64,000 bases of DNA from Pseudomonadota bacterium (GTDB lineage: Bacteria > Pseudomonadota > Gammaproteobacteria > SURF-13). The translations under genes were made by a program, and so were the position numbers. The notes under the pieces are model-generated. The model was not told where the DNA came from and made no database searches. It saw only the letters and a list, made by a program, of their open reading frames with translations. Each line of letters starts with the position of its first letter. Position 1 is the stretch's first letter. Positions 5,244 through 35,653 of this stretch are shown piece by piece. The stretch lies in NCBI GenBank assembly GCA_040756035.1, contig JBFLZV010000003.1, positions 11,970 through 75,969 of the forward strand. Reading direction: 5' to 3'.

Positions 5244-5251
5244 GAACGGCG

Positions 5252-6022: not shown

Positions 6023-6185
6023 AGTGCCGATATCATCCTCATATCCGCATGGATATTCAAGAAACTTCCTGTGTGCCGAATGCCCACGCAGCGCGCTTGC
6101 ACGACGGCGCGGCAGCATTTACCATGCGCAGATTTGCGAATCTGACATGGTTTTTGCATAAGGTCTTTCGAATGCTATTTTAACC

Positions 6186-9696: not shown

Positions 9697-9733
9697 GCTC
9701 CGCCCGGCGCCTATTGTTGACGCGCGGCGTAAC

Positions 9734-10506: not shown

Positions 10507-10977
10507 TTATTCTTCCAACAACACCACCGCGTACGCGGCGATGCCCTCCGCGCGCCCGATGAAACCCATGCCCTCGGTGGTGGTGGCCTTGATGTTGACG
10601 CGCGATGCGTCGATGCCGAGATCGGCGCTGAGATTCTTTTGCATGGCCGCGAAGTGCGCAGCGAACTTGGGCGCCTGCGCCAGAATGGTAGCGTCAACGT
10701 TGCCAACCGTCAGCTTGTTTTCGCCGAGTAGCGCCGCGATCTTGCGCAATAAAATGCGGCTGTCGATGTTGCGGTATTCGGCCTGGGAATCGGGAAAATG
10801 CCGCCCGATGTCGCCGAGGCCCGCCGCGCCCAGCAAGGCGTCGCAGACGGCATGTATCAGCACGTCGCCGTCGGAATGCGCCAACAATCCCCGCTCATAC
10901 GGAACGTGCACGCCGCCGACGATTAATTTTCGGCCCGGCGCAAAGGCGTGGGCATCGTAGCCGTGTCCTATTTTCAT
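10507..10977 (-). CDS. ispF: 2-C-methyl-D-erythritol 2,4-cyclodiphosphate synthase
   Basis: MKIGHGYDAHAF...HSDGDVLIHA...; 156 aa. Confidence 0.95.
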   Translation of the reverse strand: MKIGHGYDAHAFAPGRKLIVGGVHVPYERGLLAHSDGDVLIHAVCDALLGAAGLGDIGRHFPDSQAEYRNIDSRILLRKIAALLGENKLTVGNVDATILAQAPKFAAHFAAMQKNLSADLGIDASRVNIKATTTEGMGFIGRAEGIAAYAVVLLEE

Positions 10978-12617: not shown

Positions 12618-15600
12618 CGTGCACCGCTGCCGTTTCTTTTGCCTCTTTTTCCGCCTGCGCCCGCGCCGTACTGATGCAATCGCTTAGGTGCTTGGCCAAC
12701 GTACGCACTTGCGGTTCGCGGAAAATGGTAATGTGGTCACAGTCCAGGCTATAGCTTTCCACGCCGCGCGCAGCCAAGCGCTCCCATTCGCGCTGATAAC
12801 GCGCATGGCGGCGCCGCGTGATGCTCTGGCTCGCCCAAAACAAGGTAATGCGCCCGGGATAAGGGCCGGTCCGATACACCTTTTGCGCCCGCACGTCGGC
12901 GTCGAACACGTACTGCGTGCGCACGGCCTCCGGGATGGTCAAGCCCAGGGCGCGAAATAGTTTGTAGATTCCCCGCTTGCTGCTTAACCGCAATTTCTTG
13001 CCGACTTTTTCCGCAAGATACAATGCTTTTCCCTTGCCATCGAGCAAATTTAGATTATCCCAGTGTTCGCGCAATTTACTGCTGTGGGGCGCCGGCGCAG
13101 AATTGCCTTGCACACATGGGCTGGGGCTGTCGATCAGCGCGAGCAGCGCCACCTGCTGACCTTGCGCGTGAAGTTTGCGCGCCAGTTCAAAGGCGATCCA
13201 GGCGCCGAAGCAAGCGCCGCCTAGATAATACGGCCCTTCGGGTTGCAGCGAGCGTATCGCCTTGAGGTAATTTTCCGCCATGTCTTCCACGCGCGTTAAC
13301 GGCGTTTGTTTACCGTCCAGTCCGGGCGGCTGCAATCCGTAAAACGGCTGATCCGCGCCGAGATGGCGCGCCAGTTGGCGCATCCCGAAAAGATTTCCGC
13401 CCGCGCCGGTGATACCGAAGAAAATGGGCTGCGCGCCCGCGGGCTGAATCGCCACCAGCGGCGACCACGCCGGCGCGCAGCCCTCCTGGCGCAGCAGCAT
13501 GGCCAGCTGTTCGACGGTGGGCGCCTTGAATAGATCGGCCACCGGCAAATTTTTCCCGAAAGTTTTTTTGATGTGCGCAACCAAACGCACCGCCAGCAGC
13601 GAGTGTCCGCCGCGCTCGAAGAAATCGTCGCGCACGCCGATATTGCGCACACCCAGCACCTTTTCCCATATTCTCGTGAGCTGCAACTCCAAATCGTCGC
13701 GCGCGGCCATGTACGTGGACCGCTGCCCCGTCTCCTCCGATCCCGGCAAGGCGTGCTTATCGACCTTGCCGTTGGGGGTGAGCGGCAGGGCCGCGAGGGG
13801 CAACAGGTATTGCGGCAACATGTACGCCGGCAGTTTGCTTTGCAGGTAGGCGCGCAGCGCCTCGGTGTCGCACGCGGCGCCGGCGCGGGGTACGACGTAG
13901 GCGGCGAGGTGTTTGTCGCCGGATGGCTCGTGGCGCGCCACCACCACGCTCTCGCGCACCGCCGGATGTTGCGCGAGCACCGCTTCGATTTCGCCGAGCT
14001 CGATGCGGAAGCCGCGGATTTTGACTTGCCGGTCGCGCCGCCCGAGAAACTCGATGACGCCGTCGGGCCGGTAACGCGCCAGGTCGCCGGTTTTGTAGAG
14101 ACGCTGCCCCGGCGCGTAGGGATGCGGGATGAATTTTTCCGCGGTCAAGTCGGGCTGGTTGAGGTAGCCGCGCGCCAGGCCGTCGCCGCCGATGTACAGT
14201 TCGCCGGGCACGCCGAGGGGCACGGGGTGCAGGCACCGGTCGAGGAGGTAGACGTGGGTGTTGGCGATGGGCCGGCCAATGGGGACGCCGCCGGTTAGGG
14301 GTTGGTCGCGCGGGATGCGGTAACAGCAGGTGAAGGTGGTGTTTTCGGTGGGGCCGTAGCCGTTGATGAGCTGGCAATCGGGAAGATGCTGCAACACCTT
14401 TTGGGCGTGCGGGACGGACAAGACGTCGCCGCCGGCCAAGAGTTGACGCACGGGCTTGAGGGCGTCGAGGCGTTCGTCGACCATTAAATGGAACAGGCCG
14501 GCGGTGAGCCAGAGGATGCTGACCTGGTGCCGGCGCAGAGTTTCGCCGAGCAATTCCAGGGACGGGGTTTGATCGGGTAATAGGACTAAGCGGGCGCCGT
14601 TGAGCAGCGCACCCCAGATTTCGAACGTGGAGGCGTCGAAGGTGAGGGGGGCGGCTTGCAGGAATACGTCGGTGGGGCAAATGTGGACATAGTCGGTGTT
14701 TTTCACCAAGCGCACGACGCCGCGCTGGGGGACGAGCACGCCCTTGGGTTGGCCGGTGGAGCCGGAGGTGTAGAGGATGTAGGCGAGGCTGTCGGCGCTG
14801 GCCTGGCTTACCGGGTTGTGGTCGGGGTAGTGCTGCTGCAAGCTCGGCCAGTCGCTGTCGAGACACAGAGTCGGCACGATACTATCGGGAAGGCGCGCAC
14901 GCAGGTGCGCCTGGGTAAGCAGTAATGTAATGCCGGCGTCTTGCAGTATGAAGCGTTGCCGTTCGGCGGGATACGCGGGGTCGAGCGGGACGTAGGCGGC
15001 CCCGGCTTTGAGGATGGCGACGAGGCCGACGAGCAGGTCGAGCGAGCGTTCCAGACACAGGCCGATGCGCACTTCGGGGCCGGCGCCGTGGGCTTGCAGG
15101 TGGTGGGCGAGTGCGTTGGCGCGCTGGTTGAGTTCGGCGTAGGTGAGCTGGGCGTGTTCATGGACGAGGGCCACGTGGTCGGGGGTGGCCGCGGCTTGTT
15201 GTTCGAAGAGTTGCGCGAGCGTGGCGTCGCGCGGGTAGGGGGTGGCCGTGGCGTTCCCATCGTGCAGCAGGGCTTGGCGCTCCTCTTCGGTGAGTAAGGC
15301 CAGTTCGCTTAGGCGCTTGCCGGGGTGGGCGGAGAGGTCGTCCAACAATACACTAAAATGATCGCATAAGCGCGCGATGGTCGCCGTTTCGAACAGATCC
15401 GTGTTGTATTCGAACGTGACGGTCAATTCCGAACCCGCTTCTTCCGCCACGAATAACGTCAGATCGAACTTTGCCGTTTGATTGTTGACGTTCAACGGCG
15501 TCAGCGTCAGACCCGGAAACTGCACCGTTTGCCGGGTATTGCTTTGCAGGACGAACGCCACTTGAAACAGCGGCGTGTGACCGAGGTTGCGTCCCGGCTG

Positions 15601-16740
15601 CATCGCCTCGACCAACTCCTCGAACGGCAATTCTTGATGATCGTAAGCTTCCAGCGCCGTTTCACGCACGCGTTGCAACGCCTCGCTGAAACTCGGGTCG
15701 CCGGAAAGATCGGTGCGCAGCACCAGCGTGTTGAGAAAAAAACCGATCAGCCCCTCGACTTCGAGCGACAGGCGATTGGAAATAGGCGAGCCGACGATGA
15801 TATCGTCTTGGCTCGTATAGCGATGCAACAACACCTTGAACGCCGCGAGCACGGTCATGAACAAGGTTGCGCCATGGCGTTGACTCAACGCGGCGAGCGC
15901 CTTGCCCAGCGCGGCGGGCAGGCGCCGCGTATACACTCCGCCGCGAAAAGTCTGCATGGCGGGGCGCGGGTGATCGGCTGGCAGTTCCAACATCGACAGT
16001 TCACCGCGCAATTTATTTTTCCAGTAGGCAAGCTGCCGCTCGCGCACGCCCTCTTGCAGGCGTCGCCGCTGCCAGCACGCGAAATCGGCATACTGAATGG
16101 GCGGATCGGCGAGCGGCGCGGCGACGCCGCGCCGGTAGGCGTCGTACAGCGCCGCCATTTCGCGCTTGAGAATGTCGCGCGACCACAGGTCGAACACGAT
16201 GTGGTGCACGTTGAGCAGCAGCACGTGTTCCTGCGCGCCGGCGCGCAGCAGCGTGGCGCGCAGCAGCGGGCCGCGCGCCAGGTCGAACGGCCGGGATGCC
16301 TCCTGGGCGGCGCGGCGCTCGATTTCGGCGGCGCGTGTGTTTTCCGGCGCGTGACTCAAATCGATGACGGGCAATGTTATTTCGCGCGGTGGATGGATCA
16401 CTTGCCGCGGTTCGCCGTCCACGTTTTCAAACGTGCTGCGCAGCGTCTCGTGGCGGCGCATAACTTCGCTGAGCGCGCGTTGCAGCGCGGCGACGTCGAG
16501 CGCGCCGTGCAGTTTCCAGGCGTCGAATACGTTGTACAGGGCGCTGTCCGGGTGCCACTGCTCGAGAAACCATAAGCGTCGTTGCGCGAACGACAGCGGT
16601 GCGTCATCGCCCGCTGCGCGCGGCGTAATGCGCGGCGCCGGCGTCGCTGCGACACCCTGCTCTTCCAGTAACAAGGCAAGCAGCTCTTCTTGCGCGCTGT
16701 TCAAATCCGCCGTGCCACTCCCTTTCATCTCCGCACTCAC
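12580..16740 (-). CDS. NRPS termination module C-A-T-TE (TE with GxCxG)
   Basis: C domain (HHIVFDLWS), A domain (LTYAELN, YTSGSTGQPKGV, NGYGPTENTT, YKTGDLARY, GRRDRQVKIRGFRIELGEIE, LPNGKVD), PCP (FFERGGHSLLAVRL), TE (GITGAGGN...LGGACFGAW); likely start MKGSG/GTG ~16728-16740 after an RBS GGAGGAGAG. Confidence 0.9.
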   Translation of the reverse strand: MSAEMKGSGTADLNSAQEELLALLLEEQGVAATPAPRITPRAAGDDAPLSFAQRRLWFLEQWHPDSALYNVFDAWKLHGALDVAALQRALSEVMRRHETLRSTFENVDGEPRQVIHPPREITLPVIDLSHAPENTRAAEIERRAAQEASRPFDLARGPLLRATLLRAGAQEHVLLLNVHHIVFDLWSRDILKREMAALYDAYRRGVAAPLADPPIQYADFACWQRRRLQEGVRERQLAYWKNKLRGELSMLELPADHPRPAMQTFRGGVYTRRLPAALGKALAALSQRHGATLFMTVLAAFKVLLHRYTSQDDIIVGSPISNRLSLEVEGLIGFFLNTLVLRTDLSGDPSFSEALQRVRETALEAYDHQELPFEELVEAMQPGRNLGHTPLFQVAFVLQSNTRQTVQFPGLTLTPLNVNNQTAKFDLTLFVAEEAGSELTVTFEYNTDLFETATIARLCDHFSVLLDDLSAHPGKRLSELALLTEEERQALLHDGNATATPYPRDATLAQLFEQQAAATPDHVALVHEHAQLTYAELNQRANALAHHLQAHGAGPEVRIGLCLERSLDLLVGLVAILKAGAAYVPLDPAYPAERQRFILQDAGITLLLTQAHLRARLPDSIVPTLCLDSDWPSLQQHYPDHNPVSQASADSLAYILYTSGSTGQPKGVLVPQRGVVRLVKNTDYVHICPTDVFLQAAPLTFDASTFEIWGALLNGARLVLLPDQTPSLELLGETLRRHQVSILWLTAGLFHLMVDERLDALKPVRQLLAGGDVLSVPHAQKVLQHLPDCQLINGYGPTENTTFTCCYRIPRDQPLTGGVPIGRPIANTHVYLLDRCLHPVPLGVPGELYIGGDGLARGYLNQPDLTAEKFIPHPYAPGQRLYKTGDLARYRPDGVIEFLGRRDRQVKIRGFRIELGEIEAVLAQHPAVRESVVVARHEPSGDKHLAAYVVPRAGAACDTEALRAYLQSKLPAYMLPQYLLPLAALPLTPNGKVDKHALPGSEETGQRSTYMAARDDLELQLTRIWEKVLGVRNIGVRDDFFERGGHSLLAVRLVAHIKKTFGKNLPVADLFKAPTVEQLAMLLRQEGCAPAWSPLVAIQPAGAQPIFFGITGAGGNLFGMRQLARHLGADQPFYGLQPPGLDGKQTPLTRVEDMAENYLKAIRSLQPEGPYYLGGACFGAWIAFELARKLHAQGQQVALLALIDSPSPCVQGNSAPAPHSSKLREHWDNLNLLDGKGKALYLAEKVGKKLRLSSKRGIYKLFRALGLTIPEAVRTQYVFDADVRAQKVYRTGPYPGRITLFWASQSITRRRHARYQREWERLAARGVESYSLDCDHITIFREPQVRTLAKHLSDCISTARAQAEKEAKETAAVHDDDFSPPISLAG
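14738..15340. repeat. 603-bp direct repeat copy 1 (C-A linker to core A3 of the A domain), 602/603 identical to 18187-18789
   Basis: Base-by-base comparison of the two stretches; identical 150-aa and 118-aa ORFs in the track (14808..15260 = 18257..18709; 14941..15297 = 18390..18746). Confidence 0.95.
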
Positions 16741-16742
16741 GA

Positions 16743-19700
16743 CTACTCTCCTCCAGCCCGTTTGATCGCCCGCCGCTGCGCCAACTGGGCGCGCACCGCT
16801 TCCGGGCTGAGTTGAGCGACCTCGGTATACAAGCGCGCGCGTGCCTCGAGGCGGGCTGGGTCGGAGACCGTCGCGGTGAGCCGCGCGCATAAGGCGCTCA
16901 CGGAGGGAGCCTCAAACAGGGTGCGCACCGGCACGCTCACCCCCAACGCCTCACGCAGCCGCGCCAACACCTGGATGGCCAGCAACGAGTGTCCGCCGAG
17001 CGCGAAGAAGCCGCTGTGGCGGTCGATTTGCCCGCGGCCTAATACTTGCGCATAGAGCATGGCGATGACCTGTTCGATAGGACCCTCGGGGGCCGCGCCG
17101 GGGACGGGCATAACGCTAGCCTCTACAGGCGGGGCCGGTAAGGCGTTGCGGTCGAGTTTGCCGTGACGGGTAAGCGGGAGCTGGGGCAGGCTGACATAAG
17201 CGCTTGGCAGCAAGTACTCGGGCAGGCGCGCGCTAAGGTGAGCGCGCAGGCTCGCCTCGTCCGGCTTGTCGCCGTCGCGCGCGACGATATAAGCCACCAG
17301 ACGCGCGTCGGCTGCTCCCGGACTCTTGCCCTGCGCGATAATCGTGCGTTCCCGCACATCGCCGGGCGCGTCTTCGCGTACGCTGACGGCGGCGGCTTGC
17401 ACGCCCGGGTGGGTCTGAAGGAGAGCCTCGATCTCGCCCAGTTCGATACGGTAGCCTCTGAGTTTGACTTGGCCGTCCAGGCGCCCGAGATATTCCAGCA
17501 TCCCGTCGGAGCGGCGGCGTACGCGGTCGCCGGTTTGGTAAAGCCGTGCCCCCGGCTGGTAGGGGTCAATCACAAAACGCTGGATGGTGAGATCGGGGCG
17601 ATTGAGATAGCCACGTCCGACCCCCGTCCCGCCGATATAGAGTTCGCCCGCCACGCCCACGGGCACGGGCTGGCGCTCTGCGTCAAAAATGCGTAGGCCG
17701 ACATGCGGGAGGGCGTGGCCGAGGTGTGGGGTGCTGCCGGGGGTGAGGCGCGCGAAGGTAGCGTCCACGGTGCATTCGGTGGGACCATAGAGGTTATAGG
17801 CGGCCCAGTCGGGACAGGCGGCAATCGCCTCCCATAGACCGGACACGAGGGCCTCGCCGCCGATGAGCAGGCAGATTGGGCGGTAGGTGTCCGGGGCGAG
17901 CAGGCCGGCCTGGGTGAGCAAGGTAAGCTGGGTCGGCGTGGTATCGAGGACGTCGATGCGCGCCGTGGCAAGGTACTCCAGCAGGGCCGCGCCGTCCGGG
18001 CGGCAGGCCTCGGGCACCAGGCACAGGGTGTGACCGCTCAGCAGTTGCAGCCATTGTTTGACGGAAGTGTCGAAATAGATCGGACCGTTGAGGCTCACGC
18101 GCAGAGGTCGCGCGGGCGCGAGGTCGTGATAGACGGTATCGGCCAGGGCCTGGTGCAAATGAACCAGAGCGCCGTGTTCGATCATGACGCCCTTGGGTTG
18201 GCCGGTGGAGCCGGAGGTGTAGAGGATGTAGGCGAGGCTGTCGGCGCTGGCCTGGCTTACCGGGTTGTGGTCGGGGTAGTGCTGCTGCAAGCTCGGCCAG
18301 TCGCTGTCGAGACACAGAGTCGGCACGATACTATCGGGAAGGCGCGCACGCAGGTGCGCCTGGGTAAGCAGTAATGTAATGCCGGCGTCTTGCAGTATGA
18401 AGCGTTGCCGTTCGGCGGGATACGCGGGGTCGAGCGGGACGTAGGCGGCCCCGGCTTTGAGGATGGCGACGAGGCCGACGAGCAGGTCGAGCGAGCGTTC
18501 CAGACACAGGCCGATGCGCACTTCGGGGCCGGCGCCGTGGGCTTGCAGGTGGTGGGCGAGTGCGTTGGCGCGCTGGTTGAGTTCGGCGTAGGTGAGCTGG
18601 GCGTGTTCATGGACGAGGGCCACGTGGTCGGGGGTGGCCGCGGCTTGTTGTTCGAAGAGTTGCGCGAGCGTGGCGTCGCGCGGGTAGGGGGTGGCCGTGG
18701 CGTTCCCATCGTGCAGCAGGGCTTGGCGCTCCTCTTCGGTGAGTAAGGCCAGTTCGCTTAGGCGTTTGCCGGGGTGGGCGGAGAGGTCGGCGAGCAGCGT
18801 CTGGTAGTGCCGCGCCCAGCGTTCGATGGTCGCGGCGTCGAATAGGTCGGTGTTGTAATCCCATTGTACGCGGAACTCGCTGCCCGTCTCGACGATGTTC
18901 ACCTTGAGATCGAAGTTAATATTCTTTTTCGGATTACTGCGAGCTTCCACGTGCAAGTCGTGGAACATTAGATGATCCTGTGCATAATCCACGTTGAACG
19001 TCACCGTGGTAAGCGGCGTTCTGCCGGGATCGCGCGTGACGTTGAGTTTCTCCAGTAAACTCCCGTACGTGTAGTGTTGATACTCATGAATATCCAGAAC
19101 GGCGGCCTTTATCTCTTTTAGAAAGTCGGCTGCTTTTTTCTCGCCCATCACGGGTCGCCGCAGCGGTAGAAAATTCACGCAGTGGCCGACCAGACTGTCG
19201 CCGCTTACCGGAATTTGCCCGGCGGCGGGAATGCCGACCACGATGTCTTCCTGCCCGCTCATGCGATGCAGGAAAACCTCAAACGCCGCCAGCAACATGC
19301 AGAATAACGTGCAACTATGCCGCATCGCCGCGCGCTTTATATCTTGATAAAGTGGTTGCCCGATACTGAAAACATAGCGCGCGCCGTTATAAGTGAGCAC
19401 GGGAGGACGCGGGCGGTCAGTGGGCAACTCCAGCGCCGCAACCGGTTCGGAAAACTGTTGCACCCAGTAAGTCTCGGCGGCGACGCGCTCCGGGCTTTGC
19501 GCCTGCTCTGCTTGCAGGCGTGCGTACTCGCTGAATTGCATGGGCGGCGCCAGCGCCGCGTCCGTGCCCGTGCACGCCGCCGCGTAAAGCGCGCCGAGAT
19601 CGCGCAGCAGCACGCCCACCGACCAGCCGTCGCACACGATATGATGCGCGGTAATGAGCAAAAAGTGATGCAAATCTTCCAGCTTCACCAAGTGGAAGCG

Positions 19701-22700
19701 CAACAGCGGGCCGGTGGTGAGATCGAATGCGCGCCGCACATCGTGCTCCACCAGTGCGCTCATTTTCTCGGCACGCTGCTCCGCATTCAAATTAGAGAAG
19801 CCTAGAATCGGCACCTCGGCGGTCATCGTCGGCAGAATTTCCTGATAATCGCCCTGCGCGCTGAATACGGTGCGCAACGCCTCGTGGCGCGCGACCAAAT
19901 TTTGCACGGCCTCGCGCAGCGCGGCGTTGTTCAACGGGCCGCGCAGATGCAGCATCAGGGAATCGTTGTAACAACACGATGCCTCCTCGCCCAGCTGCGC
20001 GGCGATCCAAAGTTCCTTCTGAGGTCCGGTCAACGGCAAGCGCACCGGCTCGCGCGCCTCGGCGCTTCGCGCGATCTCGCGCCGCACCGGCTGCGGCGAG
20101 TCGGCCTCCTGCTCCGCGGGCTCGGGGAAAAATCCGCCCGCCTGCATTTCCGCAATGCTTTCCTTGAAGGCGCGGATGATTCGATCGATGTCCTCGTCGC
20201 TGTGCGCGGTGGAAAGAAAGCACGGGCGGCCTTCCCAAATGTGGATACCCTTGTCGCGTAAATGATAAAAAAGCAGGCCGGCGAATTTTTGCTCGCCCTC
20301 GAAGTGCACATAGAACATGGAGCTGAAATGTGTGATGCGCACGGGTGCTTGATGTGCACGGAAATAATCGTTGAGCACCGCGGCCAAAGCCGCCGTTTTG
20401 CGATTCAACTGCTCCTGCAAACCGGGCCCGCTGCGTTTCAAGTGTTCGAGCACCGCGCGCGCCGCGGTCAAAGCGAGAGGATGGCGCACGAAGGTGCCGG
20501 CAAAGAACGTCACGCCGACCTCCGGAAACGAGTTGTCTCCGTAATTCCACGCGCCGCCGTCGAAGGCGTCCAGATAACGCGCCCGCCCCGCCAACGCGCC
20601 GATGGGCATGCCGCCGCCGATCACCTTGCCGTAGGTGGCGAGGTCGGCGCGCACGTCGAACAGCGCCTGCGCGCCGCCGGGATGCGCGCGGAAACCGGTG
20701 ATGACTTCATCGAAGATGAGCGCCGTGTCCGAGGCCGCGGTCAGGCGCCGCACCTCTTGCAGAAATTCCCTGGGTTGCAAATCGGGATGCCGGCTCTGCA
20801 CGGGTTCGACCAGCACGGCGGCGAGTTGCGGGCCGTGCTTTTTCAGCAACGCGAGCGACGCGGGCGCACCGTACTCCAAAACCAGCACGTCCTGCACCAT
20901 GTGTTCCGGTATGCCGGGCGCTATCGGCAGCGGGCGCGAATGTCCGCCGCGCGTGGACGCGCGCACCAGCACTTCGTCGAAAATGCCGTGATAAGAGCCG
21001 GCGAACAACGCGATTTTGTCGCGCCCGCTGACGGTGCGCGCCGCACGCAGCGCCGCCATCACCGCCTCGGAACCGGTGTTGCAAAAAATCGCGCGCTCCA
21101 TGCCGGTGAACGCGCACAGCGCTTCCGCGACTTTGCCGGCCAGCGGCGAAGTCGGCCCGATTTCCATGCCCGACTCGAGCTGATCCTGCAACGCCTCGGT
21201 GACGAAAGGCGGCGCATGGCCGAATAGATTGACGCCGAAGCCCATGGTCAAGTCGATATACTCATTGCCGTCCACGTCCCAAATTTTGGAGCCGGACGAA
21301 CGCGCGGCGACGATCGGATAAACCATTTCCTTCCATTGCAAACGAAATCCAGAAACCGCGCGCGGGTCGCAAAAATGCGCGCGGTGCGCCTTGGTGTAGC
21401 GCTTGGACTCCGCGGTGCGCCGCGTATAGCGCCCGATCAACGCCCCCAAGTGTTTTTGCTGACGCGCGTTGAGGCCGCCGCCGATTCCTTTTTCAATGGG
21501 CTTGTAAGGGCCAAAGGGCTTACTCTCCGCGCGCGCTTCCCGCACCGTGTGCCGCGCCATGCTCGCCGGCGCGCCCACGTCGGGCGCCGCAGCCTCGGCG
21601 TTTCCGGCCTTGCCCCAGAGTGCGGCGCTGCGGCGCAACTCCTCCAATTGTTTTTCAATGAGCGCCAATTGCCGCGCCACGGCGTCGGCCTGCGGTTGCG
21701 CGGGAGCGGTTTTCTCCGAGGCGGAATCGGATACTTCATCCTCGCGCAACGCCTCGGTCGGCAAGGAACGATCCAGGTAGCCCGCCAGCGCTTCCAGCGT
21801 GGCGGATTCCTCCAGCAGTTGGCGGAACGGAACTTTCACGTTGAATTTTTTTTGCAGCGCGTGGCTGATCTGCGTGAGAAACAGAGAATCAAAGCCCATT
21901 TCCAAAAACGTCGTGGTGGCGCCGATGGCGGTTATGTCCAACCCCGACAATTCGCTCAAAGCCTCTTGCAGCATCGGCAGCAGCTTTTCCCGCCGGCTGA
22001 ACGACTTTTTTACACTCGTTTCAATCATTTGTTCCTCAAGCATGACGCCCTCCTCGCACTCTTCTCCCTTAATGATTTTTTGTGCAACTCTATTTTTTGC
22101 GCGCGGCGGTTCCACCCAGTAATGTTTCCGCTCGAACGCGTAACCGGGCAATGGCACGCGCCGCCGCCGCTCATGCGCGTGAAATTGCGTCCAATTAACC
22201 GTCGCGCCGGTCAACCACAACCGGCCCACGGCATCCAGCAAACAAGCGATGTCCGACCGATTATCCTGTGCGGCGCGTGCCGAGGTGATAACGGATTGCT
22301 CGGCGCGCTTGGCGGGATGCTGGCGCGCCAGCGTGCTCAGTGTTTGTCCGGGGCCGACTTCCAAAAGAACGTGTTCGGTTTTGTTCAGCAGCGTTTGCAA
22401 GCCGGCGGCGAAACGCACGGTGTGGCGCATGTGCCGCACCCAGTACTGCGGATCGGTCGCCTGCGCGGCGTCGATCCACGTTCCGGTGACGTTGGAGACG
22501 TAGGGAATCTGCGGGGGATGCAGGGCAACTTTGCGCAGTTGTTCGAGAAACGGCGCGAGGATCGGCTCCACCATCATGGAGTGGAAGGCGTGCGAGGTGT
22601 GCAGGCGCCGGTGCACGATTTCTTCCTTGGTGAGCCGCTCTTCCAGCGCCTCGATCGCGGCGTTCGGACCGGACACGACGCACAGCGCGGACCCGTTCAC

Positions 22701-24740
22701 CGCCGCCAGGCACAGTTCGCCGCCCAGCAACGGCTGCACCGTCTCTTCGTTCACACGCACGGCGAGCATGGCGCCGCCGGGCAAACTTTGGACGAGCCGC
22801 GCCCGCTCCGCCAGCAAGTTGAGCGCGTCGTGCAGCGTAAGCACGCCCGCCAGGCAAGCCGCCGTGTATTCGCCGAGGCTGTGTCCGATCATGGCCTGCG
22901 GCCGCACGCCCCACGCCATCCATAGTTTGGCGAGCGCGTATTCCACCGTGAACAGCGCCGGCTGCGTGATCCAGGTTTGTCCTAGCAGCTTCCGCGCCTG
23001 TTCCGTTTGCTCGGCGGATGGATACAATACGCTGCGCAGGTCGAGGCCCAGCAACGGTTGTAATAATTCCGCGCAGGCGTTGACGTGTTCCTGGAACACC
23101 GGCTCGCTCTCGTACAGCTCGCGGCACATATCGACGTGCTGCGCGCCCTGTCCAGGAAACATGAAGACCACCGGCGCCTGATCGTGCACGGCGACGTGCG
23201 TGGCCATGCGCGCGGCGTCATCCGCGCGCAAGATTCGTAGCGCGTCCGCCGCGTCTTGGCACACCAACATGCGCCGATGCGCATAGTGCTTGCGTCCGGC
23301 GTGTAACGTAAACGCGGCGTCGGCAAGATTAACTTCGGGTTGGCGCTCCAAATGTTCGGCCAGGGCGTCGGTCGTCGCATTCAGCGCGGCGGCGGTTTTC
23401 GCGGACAAGGTCAACACTTGCCAGGGCCGCGTCGCCTGCGCCGCGGCCGGCGCGGGCGCCTCTTCCAGCACTACGTGCACATTGGTGCCGCCGATGCCGA
23501 ACGAACTCACGCCGGCGCGGCGCGGCAATTTATCCGTGCGCCACTCGCGCAGTTCGGAGTTGACGTAGAACGGACTGTTGGCGAAATCGATTTTCGGATT
23601 AGGCTGCTCGAAGTGCAGGCTGGGCGGCAACATTTTGTGATGCAGCATCAAGGCGGTTTTAACCAATCCGGCGACGCCCGCCGCGATGTCCAAATGCCCG
23701 ATGTTGGTTTTCACCGAGCCGATGGCGCAAAAGTTTTTCTCCTGCGTCGCAACACGGAAGGCCTGTGTGAGACCGGCGATTTCTATGGGATCACCGAGCG
23801 GCGTGCCGGTGCCGTGCGCCTCCACGTAGGTGACGGTGTCGGGCTCGACGCCGGCCACGGCCTGCGCCATCGTGATCACCCGCGCCTGGCCGTCGATGCT
23901 CGGCGCTGTGTAGCCGGCCTTGAGCGCACCGTCATTGTTGACGGCGCCGCCCTTGATGACGGCCCAGATATGATCGCCGTCGGCCATGGCGTCGTCCAAT
24001 CTCTTCAGCACCACCGCCGCGGCGCCCTGCCCGCCCACCATGCCCTGCGCCTTGGCGTCGAACGCGCGGCAGTGACCATCGCCGGAATAGATGCCGCCTT
24101 CCTGGTACAAGTGGCCGCGCTTTTGCGGAAACGATATGGAGACGCCGCCGGCCAACGCCATGTCGCACTGGTAATCGAGCAGACTTTGGCAAGCGCTGTA
24201 CACCGCCACCAGCGACGTGGAGCACGCGGTCTGCACCGTCATGCTCGGACCTTGCAAATTCAACTTATAGGAAACGCGCGTGGCGAGAAAATCCTTGTCG
24301 TTGGCGATGATGGGCGCCAATCCGGTCAGGCTCCGGAATTTCGGATGCGGATACAGATTATGCAGCAAGTAGCTGTTCGTGCCGGCGCCCGCGTACACGC
24401 CTATCAATCCGGGGTAAGTATCCGGATCGTAACCGGCATTCTCCAAGGCATGCCAGCAGCATTCCAAAAATACGCGCTGCTGCGGATCGATGATCTCCGC
24501 TTCCCGGGGTTGATAGCCGAAGAACGCCGCGTCGAATGCGATGGCGTCGTCCAGCACGGCGCGCGCGCGCACGTAGTTCGGATCATGAATGAGCGCGTCA
24601 TCCACGCCGGATTCTTCCAGCTCCTGCGCAGTAAAAAATCTTACAGATTCCTTGCCGCCTTGCAGGTTGCGCCAGAATTCCTCAATATCGTTCGCGCCGG
24701 GAAATCGTCCGGCCATGCCGATAATGGCTATCCCTTCCAT
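16743..24740 (-). CDS. hybrid PKS-NRPS: KS-AT-ACP-aminotransferase(AMT)-C-A-T
   Basis: KS (TACSTSLVA, EAHGTGT, HLDIAAG-type), AT (GHSLGEY, HAFH = malonyl-specific), ACP (LEMGFDSLF), class-III aminotransferase domain (GSEAVMAALRAAR, KVIGGGMP; the PLP Lys lies in the latter), C (HHIVCDGWS), A, PCP (FFALGGHSLLAI). Confidence 0.9.
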   Translation of the reverse strand: MEGIAIIGMAGRFPGANDIEEFWRNLQGGKESVRFFTAQELEESGVDDALIHDPNYVRARAVLDDAIAFDAAFFGYQPREAEIIDPQQRVFLECCWHALENAGYDPDTYPGLIGVYAGAGTNSYLLHNLYPHPKFRSLTGLAPIIANDKDFLATRVSYKLNLQGPSMTVQTACSTSLVAVYSACQSLLDYQCDMALAGGVSISFPQKRGHLYQEGGIYSGDGHCRAFDAKAQGMVGGQGAAAVVLKRLDDAMADGDHIWAVIKGGAVNNDGALKAGYTAPSIDGQARVITMAQAVAGVEPDTVTYVEAHGTGTPLGDPIEIAGLTQAFRVATQEKNFCAIGSVKTNIGHLDIAAGVAGLVKTALMLHHKMLPPSLHFEQPNPKIDFANSPFYVNSELREWRTDKLPRRAGVSSFGIGGTNVHVVLEEAPAPAAAQATRPWQVLTLSAKTAAALNATTDALAEHLERQPEVNLADAAFTLHAGRKHYAHRRMLVCQDAADALRILRADDAARMATHVAVHDQAPVVFMFPGQGAQHVDMCRELYESEPVFQEHVNACAELLQPLLGLDLRSVLYPSAEQTEQARKLLGQTWITQPALFTVEYALAKLWMAWGVRPQAMIGHSLGEYTAACLAGVLTLHDALNLLAERARLVQSLPGGAMLAVRVNEETVQPLLGGELCLAAVNGSALCVVSGPNAAIEALEERLTKEEIVHRRLHTSHAFHSMMVEPILAPFLEQLRKVALHPPQIPYVSNVTGTWIDAAQATDPQYWVRHMRHTVRFAAGLQTLLNKTEHVLLEVGPGQTLSTLARQHPAKRAEQSVITSARAAQDNRSDIACLLDAVGRLWLTGATVNWTQFHAHERRRRVPLPGYAFERKHYWVEPPRAKNRVAQKIIKGEECEEGVMLEEQMIETSVKKSFSRREKLLPMLQEALSELSGLDITAIGATTTFLEMGFDSLFLTQISHALQKKFNVKVPFRQLLEESATLEALAGYLDRSLPTEALREDEVSDSASEKTAPAQPQADAVARQLALIEKQLEELRRSAALWGKAGNAEAAAPDVGAPASMARHTVREARAESKPFGPYKPIEKGIGGGLNARQQKHLGALIGRYTRRTAESKRYTKAHRAHFCDPRAVSGFRLQWKEMVYPIVAARSSGSKIWDVDGNEYIDLTMGFGVNLFGHAPPFVTEALQDQLESGMEIGPTSPLAGKVAEALCAFTGMERAIFCNTGSEAVMAALRAARTVSGRDKIALFAGSYHGIFDEVLVRASTRGGHSRPLPIAPGIPEHMVQDVLVLEYGAPASLALLKKHGPQLAAVLVEPVQSRHPDLQPREFLQEVRRLTAASDTALIFDEVITGFRAHPGGAQALFDVRADLATYGKVIGGGMPIGALAGRARYLDAFDGGAWNYGDNSFPEVGVTFFAGTFVRHPLALTAARAVLEHLKRSGPGLQEQLNRKTAALAAVLNDYFRAHQAPVRITHFSSMFYVHFEGEQKFAGLLFYHLRDKGIHIWEGRPCFLSTAHSDEDIDRIIRAFKESIAEMQAGGFFPEPAEQEADSPQPVRREIARSAEAREPVRLPLTGPQKELWIAAQLGEEASCCYNDSLMLHLRGPLNNAALREAVQNLVARHEALRTVFSAQGDYQEILPTMTAEVPILGFSNLNAEQRAEKMSALVEHDVRRAFDLTTGPLLRFHLVKLEDLHHFLLITAHHIVCDGWSVGVLLRDLGALYAAACTGTDAALAPPMQFSEYARLQAEQAQSPERVAAETYWVQQFSEPVAALELPTDRPRPPVLTYNGARYVFSIGQPLYQDIKRAAMRHSCTLFCMLLAAFEVFLHRMSGQEDIVVGIPAAGQIPVSGDSLVGHCVNFLPLRRPVMGEKKAADFLKEIKAAVLDIHEYQHYTYGSLLEKLNVTRDPGRTPLTTVTFNVDYAQDHLMFHDLHVEARSNPKKNINFDLKVNIVETGSEFRVQWDYNTDLFDAATIERWARHYQTLLADLSAHPGKRLSELALLTEEERQALLHDGNATATPYPRDATLAQLFEQQAAATPDHVALVHEHAQLTYAELNQRANALAHHLQAHGAGPEVRIGLCLERSLDLLVGLVAILKAGAAYVPLDPAYPAERQRFILQDAGITLLLTQAHLRARLPDSIVPTLCLDSDWPSLQQHYPDHNPVSQASADSLAYILYTSGSTGQPKGVMIEHGALVHLHQALADTVYHDLAPARPLRVSLNGPIYFDTSVKQWLQLLSGHTLCLVPEACRPDGAALLEYLATARIDVLDTTPTQLTLLTQAGLLAPDTYRPICLLIGGEALVSGLWEAIAACPDWAAYNLYGPTECTVDATFARLTPGSTPHLGHALPHVGLRIFDAERQPVPVGVAGELYIGGTGVGRGYLNRPDLTIQRFVIDPYQPGARLYQTGDRVRRRSDGMLEYLGRLDGQVKLRGYRIELGEIEALLQTHPGVQAAAVSVREDAPGDVRERTIIAQGKSPGAADARLVAYIVARDGDKPDEASLRAHLSARLPEYLLPSAYVSLPQLPLTRHGKLDRNALPAPPVEASVMPVPGAAPEGPIEQVIAMLYAQVLGRGQIDRHSGFFALGGHSLLAIQVLARLREALGVSVPVRTLFEAPSVSALCARLTATVSDPARLEARARLYTEVAQLSPEAVRAQLAQRRAIKRAGGE
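18187..18789. repeat. 603-bp direct repeat copy 2 (inside the A domain of the hybrid gene)
   Basis: See copy 1; single mismatch near the 3' end. Confidence 0.95.
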
Positions 24741-24774: not shown

Positions 24775-30192
<5,418 letters not shown>

Positions 30193-30276
30193 TAAACCCT
30201 CCTCCCTGAGGTTCACCGATGTTTTAATTAATCCCGCATTAACTCGCGGCGCGCATAATGCACGCGGCGCCCGCAA

Positions 30277-30649
30277 AGTCGGGCGCGGACAAAACTAACG
30301 GGGAGGAAATCGACGTTACAGCCGCTGGTTGATTCATGGCGCTCCTTGTCCGTTGTTATTGGCGCTCGTCAAACCTGCCGTCCGAAAATATTCGCAAACA
30401 GATCTCCGCGCCTTGCGTTCCTGCTTACACCTTTTTTGCAAAAGTGTAACAAGCGAGATACACACGCTCTTTCCTGCAAATACAATCAAATACTTGCAAG
30501 TAATAAAGAAAAGCAAAGATTCGGGCTTTGCTTTTCGTGCTCCGAGAAGCCGGGAACGGGCTTCAAGGTTCCTCTATAAATATAGTAAATTTTAAACAAA
30601 AGCAAGAGCTTTTTCCGCCGGACGGCCACGGGCGCGCCGGTCCGCGCAA
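30277..30649 (-). promoter_or_regulatory. AT-rich (~40% GC) internal intergenic region of the NRPS island. It carries the perfect palindrome TACTTGCAAGTA (30491-30502), the near-palindrome TACACCTTTTTTGCAAAAGTGTAA (30428-30451) and the hairpin AAGCAAAG/CTTTGCTT
   Basis: GC drop relative to flanks; palindromes read directly in the sequence; sits immediately upstream of the FkbH-NRPS start. Confidence 0.5.
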
Positions 30650-33600
30650 TCAGCGCGTTCGTTCATTGCGCGCAACCGCCTCCGGATGTTCGCGGCGCGC
30701 CCGCAAGGCCGCGTCGATACGGCGCGCCAGATCGGCCAGCGTAGGCGTTTCAAAAAACGTGCGTAACGGAATTTCCACGCGCAGCGCGGCGCGCAGCCGC
30801 GAGATAATTTGCGCGGCGTGCAGGGAATGGCCGCCTAATTCGAAGAAATTATCGTGCCTGTCAATGTGCGCCAAGCCCAGCACATCCTTCCAAATTTCTC
30901 CCAGTGCGTTTTCCAGCGCGCCCTCTAGAAAATAGTCGGAAGCTCGATGCTGTTTGGGGGGTGGCAAAGCGTGATAATCCACTTTACCGTTGGGCAGACG
31001 CGGCAAGGCGTCCAGCACCACGAACAACGGCGGCACCATGTGTTCGGGCAGCGCGCGCCGCGCGAAACTGCGCAACTGCGCAACCAGCAAATGGCGGCTG
31101 TCATCGACGACGCCGGACGTTGCCGGTTTGTTGGCGTAGTCACTCCAATTTTTACGGCGCACCGCTTCCGGCTCGAATCGGAACACCGGCCGCCGGACGT
31201 ACTGCATTCTCTTGCGCTGCAACAGCACGTCGAAGCAGTCGAGATGCGCGTCGCCCGACCATGTAATGCTCGCCTGATAACCTAATTCTTCACCCAGCGC
31301 CCATAAGTCTCCGGGCTCCACGCCGATCTCACGCGGCGACTCCTGTAATATTTTGCGCAATTCGCCCGCGTTCGCGGTGATGGCGTCCGCCTCCAATAAT
31401 TCCAAGGCCTTCACCTCACTTAGCAGACGTGCATTGGGAACATGCTTGATGCCCAGGGTGTCTGTACTATTTTCCGCCAGCAGCCGGCGCAACGCCGCAA
31501 TCGTCAAACCATGTTTCCGCCAGTCCAGCCACGTGATATACAACGCGTGGGAGGACGATGCCCCGATGTGCAGCATCACATCATATTTGAAGCGCGTGAT
31601 TTCATTGTGGCAGCGCCCGCCTTTGAGCTGCATCTCCACGTGGCTAATCTTGGGCAGACGCTCGGCCAGTGCATTAAACAAGGCGGGGTCGACGGCCAAG
31701 TCCTTTTCGCGCGCCAAGTGTTCCTGTACGAGTTTACATAGATCGGCCTTGGTCGTTGCAGGCGGGGCAAGCCGCATCTGCACCGAGGCGTGAAACACTT
31801 TCAGCAACGGCAAACTGCGAATGCCGCCGAGAAACACCACGCCGCCGGGCTTGACGTGTTCAACGGCGTTTTCCAAGACGTTGATAAGATATTCCACGCC
31901 GGGGAAGTGCTGCACGACCTCATTGATAACGACGACGTCAAACTTCTCGACCCCGCACGCCACCGCTTCATGCGCCGCCTCGTGCAGCAGTGTCAACGTA
32001 GCGAATTTGGCGGGACGCGTCGCCATACGCCGCTGCAGGCGCTCGATGGCCACGGAGGAAATGTCCGTGCCGCAATAATGTTTACAATGCGGACCGATTC
32101 TGTCCAGCAGTAAACCAGAGCCGCAGCCGATCTCCATAACGCGCGCGGGTTGCAGCGCCAGAATACGCCGCGCGGTATCGTCCACGCATTCGGTAATCTC
32201 CTCCAGCGGCAGCGCCTCGCGCGTATAACTACTGATCCAAATTTTTAAATTAATCGCCGCGTCCGTTTGCAAAAAGTCCTGGTCCTGACCGTAAAGATCG
32301 TCATACATGGCGCGATATTGTTCGACGTGGCGCACGTCCTCGCCACCCTTGTATTTCGGTTCGTCCACGGCATCGGCGCACAGCGGGAACTTCGGCGCCA
32401 CGTATGCCACCAAGCGCTTGTCGCCGAGCGTATCCTCGCGCACCATCACCGCGGCCTCGCGCACCGCGTCGTGTTCATGCAGCACGGCCTCGATCTCGCC
32501 CGGCTCGATCCGATAACCGCGCAGCTTTACCTGGCGGTCCATGCGGCCTATAAACTCCAGATCGCCGCTCGGCAAGTAGCGCGCCAGATCGCCCGTTGCA
32601 TACAAACGCGCGTCCGGTGCGGAGCTGAACGGATCGGCGATGAATTTCTGCGCGGTCAAATTGGGCTGGTTAAGATAACCGCGCGCCACGCCCGGCCCGC
32701 CGATGCACAGTTCGCCCGCCGCACCCTCCGTCACCGGGCGGTGTTGTGCGTCCAGCAAATAAATGCGCGTGCCGGCCGGCGCGCGGCCGATGGGCACCGG
32801 CGTCTTGGCATCGTGCCGACGGCAGTCATACACACTGCACCACACCGTGCCCTCGGTGGGCCCATATTCATTGAACAACGGCGTTGCGCCCAACGCCGCG
32901 CGGTGCCGCTCCACCAATTTGATCGGGCAGACTTCCCCCGCCACGACCACCGTGCGCAGCGAAGTTAGTGCGTACGTCTCCGCATGTTCTAAAATGTGCT
33001 CATAGAAAACCGGCAGGCACAGCAGGTGCGTAATCCGGCTCTGTTCGATTGTGCGCGCAACATACGCGGGATCACGTTGCAGATCGGGAGTCAGTAGGAA
33101 CAGCGTCCCACCTTGGCACAGTGTCCAGTAAATGCCTGCCACCGAACTATCGAAAGCGAATTGCGAGAGCAACAGGAAGCGCGCGACCGGGATTTTGTAA
33201 TAATCCAACCGCGCGCGCGTGGAGTATGCAAGGTTCTTGCGCGTGATTAGCACGCCCTTGGCGCGCCCCGTCGATCCGGACGTGTAAATAACATAGGCGA
33301 GATTTTGCGCGTGCGCGGCGTCGGAAATATTTTCCGCGCTCTCGCGATTGATTGCGGACATCGCGGCGTCGAGTTGCACGATGCATCCACCGAAACGCGG
33401 GAAGCGCCCGCTCATGGCCGCGCCGGTGAGCAACAGCGATGCGCGCGCGTCTTCCAGCATCCAAGCCAGACGCTCATGCGGATATGCCATATCCAGAGGC
33501 AAATAGGCCGCGCCGCTTTTTAGAACGCCGAGCATACCGAGCAGCATATCCAGCGGGCTATTCAAGTAAAGCGCCACCAGCACATCTGGGCCGGCGCCCG

Positions 33601-33757
33601 CCTTACGCAAGTGGCGTGCAATTTGATTGGCGCGCCGGTTCAACGCGCCGTAACTGACGGATTCTTGTTCGAATACTAAGGCGATAGCATCGGGTGCGCG
33701 CGTCGCCCGCGCCTCGAACCAACGCAGCACGCATTGATTTTCCTCATCGGCGCTCAT
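30650..33757 (-). CDS. free-standing NRPS initiation didomain A(N-methyltransferase inserted)-T
   Basis: A domain core motifs (LSYGALNRRAN, YTSGSTGRAKGV, NEYGPTEGTV, GRMDRQVKLRGYRIEPGEIE ... LPNGKVD) with a ~500-aa insertion between A8 and A10 containing the SAM motif VMEIGCGSGLLLD; C-terminal PCP FFELGGHSLHAAQI; no C domain. Confidence 0.9.
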   Translation of the reverse strand: MSADEENQCVLRWFEARATRAPDAIALVFEQESVSYGALNRRANQIARHLRKAGAGPDVLVALYLNSPLDMLLGMLGVLKSGAAYLPLDMAYPHERLAWMLEDARASLLLTGAAMSGRFPRFGGCIVQLDAAMSAINRESAENISDAAHAQNLAYVIYTSGSTGRAKGVLITRKNLAYSTRARLDYYKIPVARFLLLSQFAFDSSVAGIYWTLCQGGTLFLLTPDLQRDPAYVARTIEQSRITHLLCLPVFYEHILEHAETYALTSLRTVVVAGEVCPIKLVERHRAALGATPLFNEYGPTEGTVWCSVYDCRRHDAKTPVPIGRAPAGTRIYLLDAQHRPVTEGAAGELCIGGPGVARGYLNQPNLTAQKFIADPFSSAPDARLYATGDLARYLPSGDLEFIGRMDRQVKLRGYRIEPGEIEAVLHEHDAVREAAVMVREDTLGDKRLVAYVAPKFPLCADAVDEPKYKGGEDVRHVEQYRAMYDDLYGQDQDFLQTDAAINLKIWISSYTREALPLEEITECVDDTARRILALQPARVMEIGCGSGLLLDRIGPHCKHYCGTDISSVAIERLQRRMATRPAKFATLTLLHEAAHEAVACGVEKFDVVVINEVVQHFPGVEYLINVLENAVEHVKPGGVVFLGGIRSLPLLKVFHASVQMRLAPPATTKADLCKLVQEHLAREKDLAVDPALFNALAERLPKISHVEMQLKGGRCHNEITRFKYDVMLHIGASSSHALYITWLDWRKHGLTIAALRRLLAENSTDTLGIKHVPNARLLSEVKALELLEADAITANAGELRKILQESPREIGVEPGDLWALGEELGYQASITWSGDAHLDCFDVLLQRKRMQYVRRPVFRFEPEAVRRKNWSDYANKPATSGVVDDSRHLLVAQLRSFARRALPEHMVPPLFVVLDALPRLPNGKVDYHALPPPKQHRASDYFLEGALENALGEIWKDVLGLAHIDRHDNFFELGGHSLHAAQIISRLRAALRVEIPLRTFFETPTLADLARRIDAALRARREHPEAVARNERTR

Positions 33758-34079: not shown

Positions 34080-35653
<1,574 letters not shown>

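Follow-up and report, generated by a model that had tools for sequence, protein, structure and literature searches.

The gene g1 at positions 30650–33757 (minus strand) of the window, by which we mean the whole 64-kb stretch of DNA that was analysed, encodes a stand-alone A(MT)-T protein of 1035 amino acids, which, judged by its adenylation motifs, SAM motif and carrier serine, all of them present, is an intact initiation (loading) module with neither a C domain nor an N-terminal extension. The reading that we favour, tentatively and at slightly less than even odds, is that the N-methyl-histidine predicted for this module and the glycerate loaded by the FkbH unit of the following gene g2 are alternative starters for one condensation domain, C1. 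This reading is supported by the preservation of an apparently intact g1 with a conserved specificity code at the ftsB/ispD site in three lineages, by a window that seems to offer neither a further C domain nor a shuttle enzyme nor a defective A domain to complement, and by a starter position that appears to vary among related assembly lines.

Anatomy and predicted substrate of the loading module

The Pfam search divides g1 into AMP-binding (residues 14–362), AMP-binding_C (421–456), Methyltransf_12/23/25 (approximately 531–647) and PP-binding (951–1014) matches, with Condensation absent, and nothing resembling a C domain was found by a six-frame HMM scan, either inside the gene or ahead of it. 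The A domain begins at approximately residue 10 (TIGR01733, E 2e-129) and its motifs A2 to A10 were all located, while A1 failed the strict pattern; the adenylation core A2–A8 spans residues 14–423 (32489–33718, minus strand, by motif search), and the Asp (FDSS) and Lys (NGKVD) of the specificity pocket are both present. As A8, GRMDRQVKLRGYRIEPGEIE, occupies residues 404–423 and A9, LPEHMVP, residues 903–909, the methyltransferase insertion, delimited by Pfam, motifs and homology to TioS, comprises 479 amino acids between A8 and A9 (residues 424–902; 31052–32488, minus strand), with A10, NGKVD, at residue 923. An A domain with a methyltransferase insert of about 500 amino acids and a PCP in a protein lacking a C domain had been described in the initial annotation, and Pfam and motifs confirm this architecture; the insertion, which had been placed between A8 and A10, can be assigned more exactly to the A8/A9 boundary.

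The insert matches Methyltransf_12 (E 5e-19) and contains the class I SAM-binding motif VMEIGCGSG (in the translation, VMEIGCGSGLLLD, residues 539–551; 32105–32143, minus strand), of which E541, G543, G545 and G547 are invariant in an alignment of four sequences. The interrupted A domain TioS A4-M4 (PDB 5wmm) aligns in a single stretch to residues 14–933 (E 2e-135). The carrier T0 follows at residues 951–1014 (30716–30907, minus strand; PP-binding, E 1e-16), with the phosphopantetheine serine Ser978 in a GGHS motif (30824–30826). A8-M-A9 interrupted domains are the N-methylating modules of many NRPSs and g1 has this layout; it resembles TioS A4-M4-A4 in the methyltransferase between A8 and A9, the intact SAM motif and the full-length homology, but differs in its predicted substrate, His versus Val, and in being free-standing with its own carrier and no C domain. 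Methylation on the alpha-nitrogen is plausible, being compatible with the homology to the backbone N-methyltransferase of TioS; side-chain-methylating inserts are homologous to backbone N-methyltransferase inserts as well.

With respect to the substrate, which had been left open before, histidine is predicted, as the specificity code of g1, DSALVAEVWK, is identical in 9 of 10 positions to the code listed for His, DSALIAEVWK (PMC12283262), to which the orthologues of g1 correspond in 10 of 10 positions, so that DSAL[VI]AEVWK is conserved. The codes were read by hand from motif anchors, a procedure which, applied to g2 and g4, yielded the textbook codes for Thr and Val, respectively.

Domain inventory of the island and its entry point

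The island consists of five genes, g1 to g5, all on the minus strand and flanked by housekeeping genes on the same strand, with ftsB (34080–34352; an ORF, with the DivIC family in the same position in the orthologous islands L001 and L002) as upstream and ispD (10974–11696; Pfam IspD, E 2e-61) as downstream border. According to Pfam, g2 (24775–30195) is FkbH-T1-C1-A(Thr)-T2 with the code DFWNIGMVHK, g3 (16743–24740) is KS-AT-ACP-aminotransferase-C2-A(Glu-like)-T3 with the code DTKDLGLVDK, g4 (12580–16728) is C3-A(Val)-T4-TE and g5 (11802–12617; ACPS, AASDHPPT_N), the last gene of the island, encodes an Sfp-type phosphopantetheinyl transferase. The true start of g4 is M55 of a long ORF, in agreement with the NCBI protein P0126 (1382 amino acids); the nucleophile of its TE is a Cys (GACFG, 13210–13212), and an HHIVFDL motif is also found in g4. 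Mycosubtilin MycA and microcystin McyE contain KS-AT-ACP-aminotransferase-C-A-T hybrid modules; the domain order of g3 is the same, so that g3 is predicted to form a beta-amino acid from malonate and the residue before it.

Six carrier serines (S978 in g1, two in g2, the ACP and one T in g3, one in g4) are found in the island together with three C domains and one KS in the Pfam search. A profile HMM derived from 15 C-domain sequences and run on every stop-to-stop fragment of the 64-kb window in all six frames returned only C1, C2 and C3 (E 1e-179 to 1e-192), which rules out a hidden condensing catalyst. The earlier count of six carriers against four condensing catalysts is hence borne out, no spare C domain being left for the carrier of g1, and the additional C domain which would have overturned that count did not turn up in the 64 kb. 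The N-terminal part of g2 (approximately 220 amino acids), considered as a C domain, is too small and has no family match; the FkbH-like PDB 3slr matches g2 at the same residue offset, so that this region is apparently comparably long in 3slr, and an AlphaFold2 model computed without alignment reached a mean pLDDT of 43.6.

The A domains of the main line are present in three of three modules (g2 to g4), each with A2–A5, A8 and A10, while A6, A7 and A9 of g3 and A9 of g4 were missed by strict patterns, and their codes are textbook Thr, textbook Val and, for the third, Glu-like. A defective main-line A domain in need of complementation is contradicted by these motifs. A stand-alone A-T didomain harbouring a tailoring insert is a hallmark of systems of the SyrB1, albicidin Alb04 and cystobactamid CysH type (PMC8949500), in which a modified residue is supplied in trans to a module without a working A domain; for g1 such a role appears very improbable, as each module of g2 to g4 has its own A domain with a Thr, Val or Glu-like code, no SyrC/CmaE-type shuttle acyltransferase was found in the island and the docking tails of the orthologues aim at a C domain and not at a carrier. 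An MbtH-like gene was not found by signature search.

The glycerate branch enters through the FkbH glyceryl-loading domain of g2 (28567–29529, minus strand; NCBIfam TIGR01686, E 7e-84 for g2 and 1.2e-84 over residues 223–543) and its carrier T1 (28087–28275, minus strand, Pfam), which is joined by a Pro/Ala-rich linker of approximately 23 amino acids, without a docking domain, to C1 (26680–28017, minus strand; Pfam E 2e-112, HHTVYDG motif). Cyanopeptolins carry glyceric-acid caps and are made by FkbH-primed NRPS lines. In the FkbH-primed vioprolide and cystomanamide systems, as is presumed here, FkbH-T hands a glyceryl-S-carrier to a C domain. Plausibly, judging from the domain content of the window, C1 is the only acceptor-side catalyst for a starter unit. 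It is covalently joined to FkbH-T1, and the subunit after g1 opens with FkbH-T.

Neither half of a docking pair was found in the window. The C-terminal tail of g1, ...RRIDAALRARREHPEAVARNERTR (30653–30715, minus strand), closes with ...ARNERTR and lacks the [IV]QGE[IL] end which the alignment reveals in P0002, P0004 and the FkbH-T of L001, and this motif is absent from every frame downstream of g1. On the other hand, g2, g3 and g4 have no Pfam match to the docking domain TubC_N (PF18563), and an HMM made from the corresponding domains of L001 and L002 gave a best E of 0.1 in a six-frame scan of the window; the subunit after g1 does not begin with an accepting C domain, and no docking element towards one was found. 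The two window carriers T0 and T1 share only 44% identity, without the gene conversion seen in L001.

Between the two genes, a terminator-like hairpin with an 11-bp stem followed by UUUAUUACUU (30508–30536, minus strand; consensus scan) is located approximately 110 nt past the stop of g1 inside a 454-nt AT-rich spacer, folding with -18.3 kcal/mol (z -2.5), and the probable start of g2, the ATG at 30195, is preceded by a strong Shine-Dalgarno sequence, GGGAGGAGGG; the two spacers had no Rfam match. Hairpin, as a consensus match only, and spacer weakly suggest that g1 may be transcribed separately from g2, which leans slightly towards the case, named in the initial annotation as counting against its own reading, that g1 is not co-transcribed with the rest.

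Docking tails and a converted carrier in the orthologous islands

Two orthologous islands, L001 and L002, occupy the same ftsB/ispD site in related uncultured Pseudomonadota. Among the three lineages, housekeeping proteins are 80–88% identical, while g1 is approximately 50% identical in every pair and nowhere disrupted. The A(MT)-T of L002 has the C-terminus YVQGEL, and its gene overlaps by 4 nt with the next one, whose product opens with a beta-hairpin docking domain of the TubC_N type (E 1e-19) followed by C-A. No FkbH lies between these two genes; as the contigs stop after 7.4 kb, approximately 2.7 kb downstream, an FkbH gene possibly is located beyond the contig end. The second gene of L002 is overall nearer to g4 (55%) than to the C1 module (47%) because of the Val-type A domain common to both, and its C domain alone is equidistant from the two (47–49%).

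In L001, the FkbH-T is free-standing; like the A(MT)-T, it ends with ...PLTDR..IQGEI, and the two share a 133-nt carrier core with 96% identical DNA between diverged flanks. The protein that follows them has the order TubC_N (E 4e-15)-C-A(Thr)-T. The same duplication is present in L089, an independently assembled contig 99.97% identical to L001. The FkbH carrier of L001 is 51–56% identical to A(MT)-T carriers, 71% to its own neighbour and 42% to the FkbH carrier of the window, from which we infer that the FkbH unit received the carrier and docking tail of the A(MT)-T. We found no published description of an FkbH-T and an A(MT)-T sharing one tail for one docking domain as in L001.

The tails and the matching TubC_N-C subunits in L001 and L002 indicate that modules of this family have their cognate partner in the C domain that comes first in the line and is homologous to C1; C1 is 54% identical to its L001 counterpart and 47% to the C domain of L002. 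The designation of g1 as an orphan is therefore valid in so far as no partner C domain is left in the window, but it does not extend to the orthologues with their tail and the matching TubC_N on the next C-A. Similar junctions are known from TubB-TubC of tubulysin, rhabdopeptide Kj12 and enacyloxin Bamb_5915 (PMC9113145); L001 and L002 are alike in the five-residue strand-like tail with a conserved Glu and in the TubC_N on the downstream C-A, whereas the proteins of the window carry neither the tail motif nor TubC_N.

The comparison with L001 covers its contig up to the last 8 kb, which hold the terminal module, and homology searches with g3 and g4 did not return L001 orthologues of these genes. 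Among GTDB representative genomes nothing closer than 45% was found, an exhaustive search of representatives was dominated by giant NRPSs with summed scores, and a JGI metagenome scan retrieved only L089, again the organism of L001, so that the A(MT)-T island is represented by three lineages in the databases searched.

Related KS-AT-ACP-aminotransferase lines differ in how they begin: L086 opens with an N-terminal C domain and L087 with a fused FkbH-T-C. There is no A(MT)-T near L087, from which it follows that the fused start is self-sufficient. As this fused FkbH-T-C occurs in a more distant line, both fusion first and splitting first would be compatible with the data.

The start of L087 also speaks for a decoupled module, according to which g1 would no longer feed the line after fusion of FkbH-T to C1 and loss of docking and would be an intact relic, a partner of a protein encoded outside the 64 kb or the source of a separate small molecule, for instance free methyl-histidine. 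The missing tail and docking domain in the window and the hairpin, the 454-nt spacer and the Shine-Dalgarno sequence of g2 point in the same direction. However, a 3.1-kb ORF has retained its catalytic motifs and code through approximately 50% protein divergence in three lineages, where a neutral relic is expected to show stops or frameshifts; g1 has diverged between the window and L001 about as far as the FkbH unit (50% versus 52% identity), and apart from the line's own TE nothing in the island is able to release an amino acid bound to T0. We consider the decoupled state unlikely, though worth keeping in mind.

Two loading units and one donor site

Two loading units and the single donor site of C1 would most likely give rise to two product series. 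The A domain of g1 would activate L-histidine, the embedded methyltransferase would add a methyl group, most likely to the alpha-amine, and the thioester would reside on T0. The natural partner of the module would be the first condensation domain of the line, which in the window also has the fused FkbH-T1. With the predicted His, Thr, Glu-like and Val specificities, the major series, primed in cis, would be glyceroyl-Thr-(malonate-extended, beta-aminated)-Glu-Val, and a second series, primed in trans, would start with N-methyl-His-Thr-.... In this model, T0 of the window would still have access to C1 in spite of the missing docking pair. Of the possibilities raised at the outset for g1, the comparative evidence favours priming by g1 as an alternative to FkbH, and the behaviour of docking elements fits, as the last five residues alone bind the beta-hairpin docking domain and such tail/beta-hairpin pairs are promiscuous, with several partners per site supported (PMC9113145). 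Against alternative starters may be held that, the docking pair being gone, an untethered T0 would be in competition with the covalently tethered T1, that the two carriers are only 44% identical and that a putative terminator hairpin and a long spacer lie between g1 and g2.

Anabaenopeptins (AptA1/AptA2) and puwainaphycins are documented cases of alternative starter modules (PMC8402340). AptA1/AptA2 and the puwainaphycin FAAL pair are alike in that two separately encoded starters serve one line and yield product variants; there, the starters are paralogues of the same type, whereas here a HAD/FkbH glycerate loader, fused in cis, stands beside an A(MT)-T amino-acid loader, with a proposed dual use.

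Instead of two series, one branched molecule might hold both units, with N-methyl-His attached to a glycerate or Thr hydroxyl as ester or to the aminotransferase-derived beta-amine as amide. Free nucleophiles would be available in the two glycerate hydroxyls, the Thr hydroxyl and this beta-amine, and one docking domain-C subunit of L001 faces two carriers that bear identical tail ends, an arrangement which would also allow successive use. As the bonds would outnumber the condensing domains, C1 or C2 would be needed a second time, or the Cys-TE, which would presuppose iterative use. Vioprolide provides a known case of ester-forming C domains that use glycerate derived from FkbH (PMC8949500); there, however, FkbH belongs to an extension module and is preceded by the ester-forming C domain, an extra domain upstream of it, whereas the FkbH of the window is N-terminal with no C domain before it, and C1 is an ordinary C domain, 47–54% identical to C3 and the L001 and L002 C domains. 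The Cys-TE and the aminotransferase are common to single-starter relatives and hence did not arise for the sake of a second acyl unit. A branched product is in our view improbable, to about the same degree as decoupling, and a single depsipeptide with both loaders, in which C1, C2 or the Cys-TE would be used twice while the L001 carriers alternate, appears somewhat more doubtful still.

The Cys-TE was present in three of three related lines examined, two of them without a nearby A(MT)-T and the third on a contig that starts too near the gene for this to be judged; the proposed delivery of the g1 residue to the Cys-TE consequently lacks support.

If g1 is merely decoupled, it would be an ordinary leftover. 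If N-methyl-His and glycerate are indeed alternative starters, the three uncultured relatives would keep successive states of a starter change in one assembly line, with a docked amino-acid loader in L002, both loaders with the same gene-converted carrier and tail in L001 and, in the window, a glycerate loader fused in cis with the amino-acid loader left undocked. A pair of products differing by 63.06 Da, with N-methyl-His in place of glycerate, would be predicted. The family would then provide a natural example of how short docking tails and carrier gene conversion let an assembly line try a new starter, which would bear on the re-engineering of NRPS/PKS lines with SLiM/beta-hairpin docking pairs.

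Domain content of the island

The window belongs to the metagenome-assembled genome of a Pseudomonadota bacterium; Eno, PyrG, KdsA and AccA encoded in it are identical to MAG proteins at NCBI from a 632-kb contig. Five minus-strand genes, g1 to g5, are bracketed by the housekeeping genes ftsB (34080-34352) and ispD (10974-11696) and encode a stand-alone A(MT)-T protein (g1, 30650-33757), FkbH-T1-C1-A-T2 (g2, 24775-30195), KS-AT-ACP-aminotransferase-C2-A-T3 (g3, 16743-24740), C3-A-T4-TE (g4, 12580-16728) and an Sfp-type PPTase (g5, 11802-12617). For g2, the most likely start codon is the ATG at 30195, with the Shine-Dalgarno sequence GGGAGGAGGG upstream. The real start of g4 is the ATG at 16728, which lies 15 nt past the stop of g3 and is also used in the NCBI protein; the mechanically called g4 ORF (12580-16890) begins 54 codons too early and runs into the g3 end.

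The g1 protein possesses neither a C domain nor an N-terminal extension. The methyltransferase, 479 aa long, is inserted between motifs A8 (residues 404-423) and A9 (903-909) and has its SAM motif at residues 539-551; an end-to-end alignment links the protein to the interrupted A domain of TioS (5wmm; E 2e-135). g1 belongs to the methylating modules with an interrupted A domain and is by architecture a loading module, but it lacks the one loading-module trait that would tie it to a downstream C domain. As to the balance of the island, the six carrier serines face three C domains and one KS, and domain count and motif reading agree with the initial annotation on six carriers against four condensing catalysts and on a g1 without a C domain. 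Nor had a C domain been overlooked: an HMM built from 15 C domains and applied to every stop-to-stop fragment in six frames of the 64-kb window recovered C1, C2 and C3 and no further one.

The catalytic motifs of C1 (HHTVYDG) and C2 (HHIVCDG) are canonical, and C3 (within 15265-16608) reads HHIVFDL, with Leu instead of the usual Gly after Asp. The N-terminal A-domain parts of g4 (14738-15340) and g3 (18187-18789) share a 603-nt stretch of 99.8% identity, the corresponding g2 stretch (26149-26745) being 81% identical, which indicates recent gene conversion among the island modules or possibly an effect of MAG assembly.

Orthologous islands and the docking partner of g1

The g1 protein is rare: besides itself, the best database matches are a pair of free-standing A(MT)-T proteins of approximately 50% identity, encoded in islands of related uncultured Pseudomonadota (L001 from ENA and L002, four Logan contigs). 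Both orthologues sit directly after eno-ftsB, the same chromosomal site as g1, and the gene is intact in all three organisms with approximately 50% identity in every pair, whereas Eno is 80-84% identical across the three and PyrG and KdsA are 87% and 88% identical between the window and L001. The shared site and the divergence of the island against conserved housekeeping genes therefore mark the island as old, fast-evolving and inherited in place. At the ftsB-ispD junction as a whole (window 10974-34352, L001, L002-L005), island proteins are approximately 50-62% identical and flanking housekeeping proteins 80-88%.

In L002, the A(MT)-T protein ends in ...YVQGEL, and its gene shares 4 nt with the next gene, which encodes TubC_N (E 1e-19)-C-A, with no FkbH gene between the two. 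In L001, the A(MT)-T protein ends in ...NRIQGEI and is followed, after an 800-nt spacer, by a free-standing 726-aa FkbH-T with the C-terminus ...DRIQGEI, TubC_N (E 4e-15)-C-A(Thr code)-T and a g3 homologue. Such C-terminal motifs are bound by the beta-hairpin docking domain, here TubC_N, through their last five residues only (PMC9113145). The cognate partner in the g1 family is thus the first C domain of the line, and the module is not an orphan by design; what stands of the orphan status initially assigned to g1 is that the window holds no spare C domain.

The A(MT)-T and FkbH-T carriers of L001 share a 133-nt core (12972-13104 and 15971-16103) with 96% DNA identity between diverged flanks. 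An assembly artefact is ruled out by the same duplication (5926-6058 and 8925-9057) in L089, an independently assembled JGI contig 99.97% identical to L001. The L001 FkbH carrier is 51-56% identical to A(MT)-T carriers, 71% to its neighbour and 42% to the window FkbH carrier; evidently, the FkbH unit received the carrier of the A(MT)-T together with its tail.

Proposed alternative starters at C1

The window departs from this organization. A Pro/Ala-rich linker of approximately 23 aa fuses FkbH-T1 to C1, TubC_N is absent from every frame and the docking motif is missing from the g1 tail (...ARNERTR) and all downstream frames, so that g1 lacks both defining features of the SLiM/beta-hairpin docking pair which its orthologues possess. 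Between g1 and g2 lies a 454-nt AT-rich spacer (30196-30649), the counterpart of the L001 spacer and the L002 gene overlap, with a terminator-like hairpin at 30508-30536 (-18.3 kcal/mol, z -2.5) and a strong Shine-Dalgarno sequence ahead of g2; spacer and hairpin are weak evidence that g1 may be transcribed separately.

The missing docking elements and the hairpin and spacer 3' of g1 would fit a g1 decoupled from the line or working elsewhere, but this is unlikely with a gene still intact at approximately 50% divergence. We tentatively favour g1 and FkbH-T1 as alternative starters, where C1 would take either the g1-loaded or the FkbH-loaded unit. The docking logic of the orthologues and the long retention of an intact g1 support alternative starters, against which stands the docking pair missing in the window. 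Anabaenopeptin AptA1/AptA2 provides a precedent (PMC8402340), and docking pairs of the SLiM/beta-hairpin type are promiscuous, systems with multiple tails and docking domains making product mixtures (PMC9113145).

The chain offers free hydroxyls and a beta-amine, through which both starter units could enter one branched product; this is equally doubtful as decoupling, since C1, 47-54% identical to C3 and orthologous C domains, is of the ordinary type and AmT and Cys-TE are common to single-starter relatives. Highly improbable is the trans-complementation of a dead main-line A domain by g1, as its likeness to SyrB1/Alb04 is superficial, every main-line A domain looks functional from its code (Thr, Val or Glu-like) and its motifs A2-A5, A8 and A10, and a shuttle enzyme is absent from the island. 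Some weight was reserved for readings beyond these four.

Among more distantly related lines, L086 opens with a divergent N-terminal C domain and L087 with FkbH-T-C-A-T; both go on as KS-AT-ACP-AmT-C-A-T-C-A-T-TE, with no A(MT)-T nearby. As judged from these gene architectures, lines of this kind vary in their starter position, and a fused FkbH-T-C can suffice as a start by itself. In L087 (forest soil), one protein (1614-10004) reads FkbH-T-C-A-T-C-x-T, its second C-like domain being highly divergent (approximately 19% identity to the remaining C domains), with a Cupin_8/JmjC gene upstream. The g4 TE carries a Cys nucleophile (13210-13212, GACFG), and G-x-C-F-G recurs in the terminal TEs of all three related KS-AT-ACP-AmT-...-TE lines examined (L086, L087, L088); this common Cys-TE may form a macrolactam via the beta-amine.

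We found no description of an arrangement in which a single C domain would be served by loaders of unrelated chemistry, here HAD-type FkbH and A(MT)-T. The arrangement is read from the sequences of three lineages, in one of which a gene-converted carrier and tail are common to both loaders.

A predicted methylhistidine module

Ten specificity residues per A domain were read by hand from motif anchors. The procedure is validated by g2 (DFWNIGMVHK) and g4 (DAFWLGGTFK), which give exactly the textbook Thr and Val codes and are so predicted; g3 (DTKDLGLVDK) is predicted to be Glu/Gln-like and g1 (DSALVAEVWK) to activate His. Both g1 orthologues carry DSALIAEVWK, which is among the codes of His-activating domains in a 2025 survey (PMC12283262). 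More distant homologues (P0006, P0011, P0043; 44-47% identity) combine the His-type code DSALIAE[VI]WK and the A8-A9 methyltransferase insertion in three further architectures, C-A(MT)-T-TE, A(MT)-T-KS, and A(MT)-T-R behind an N-terminal C-like region, which makes the predicted His-plus-methyltransferase module a building block that recurs. N-methylhistidine is found in the cyclic depsipeptide evybactin (PMC13609607). As a building block, the predicted methyl-His module appears mobile across phyla.
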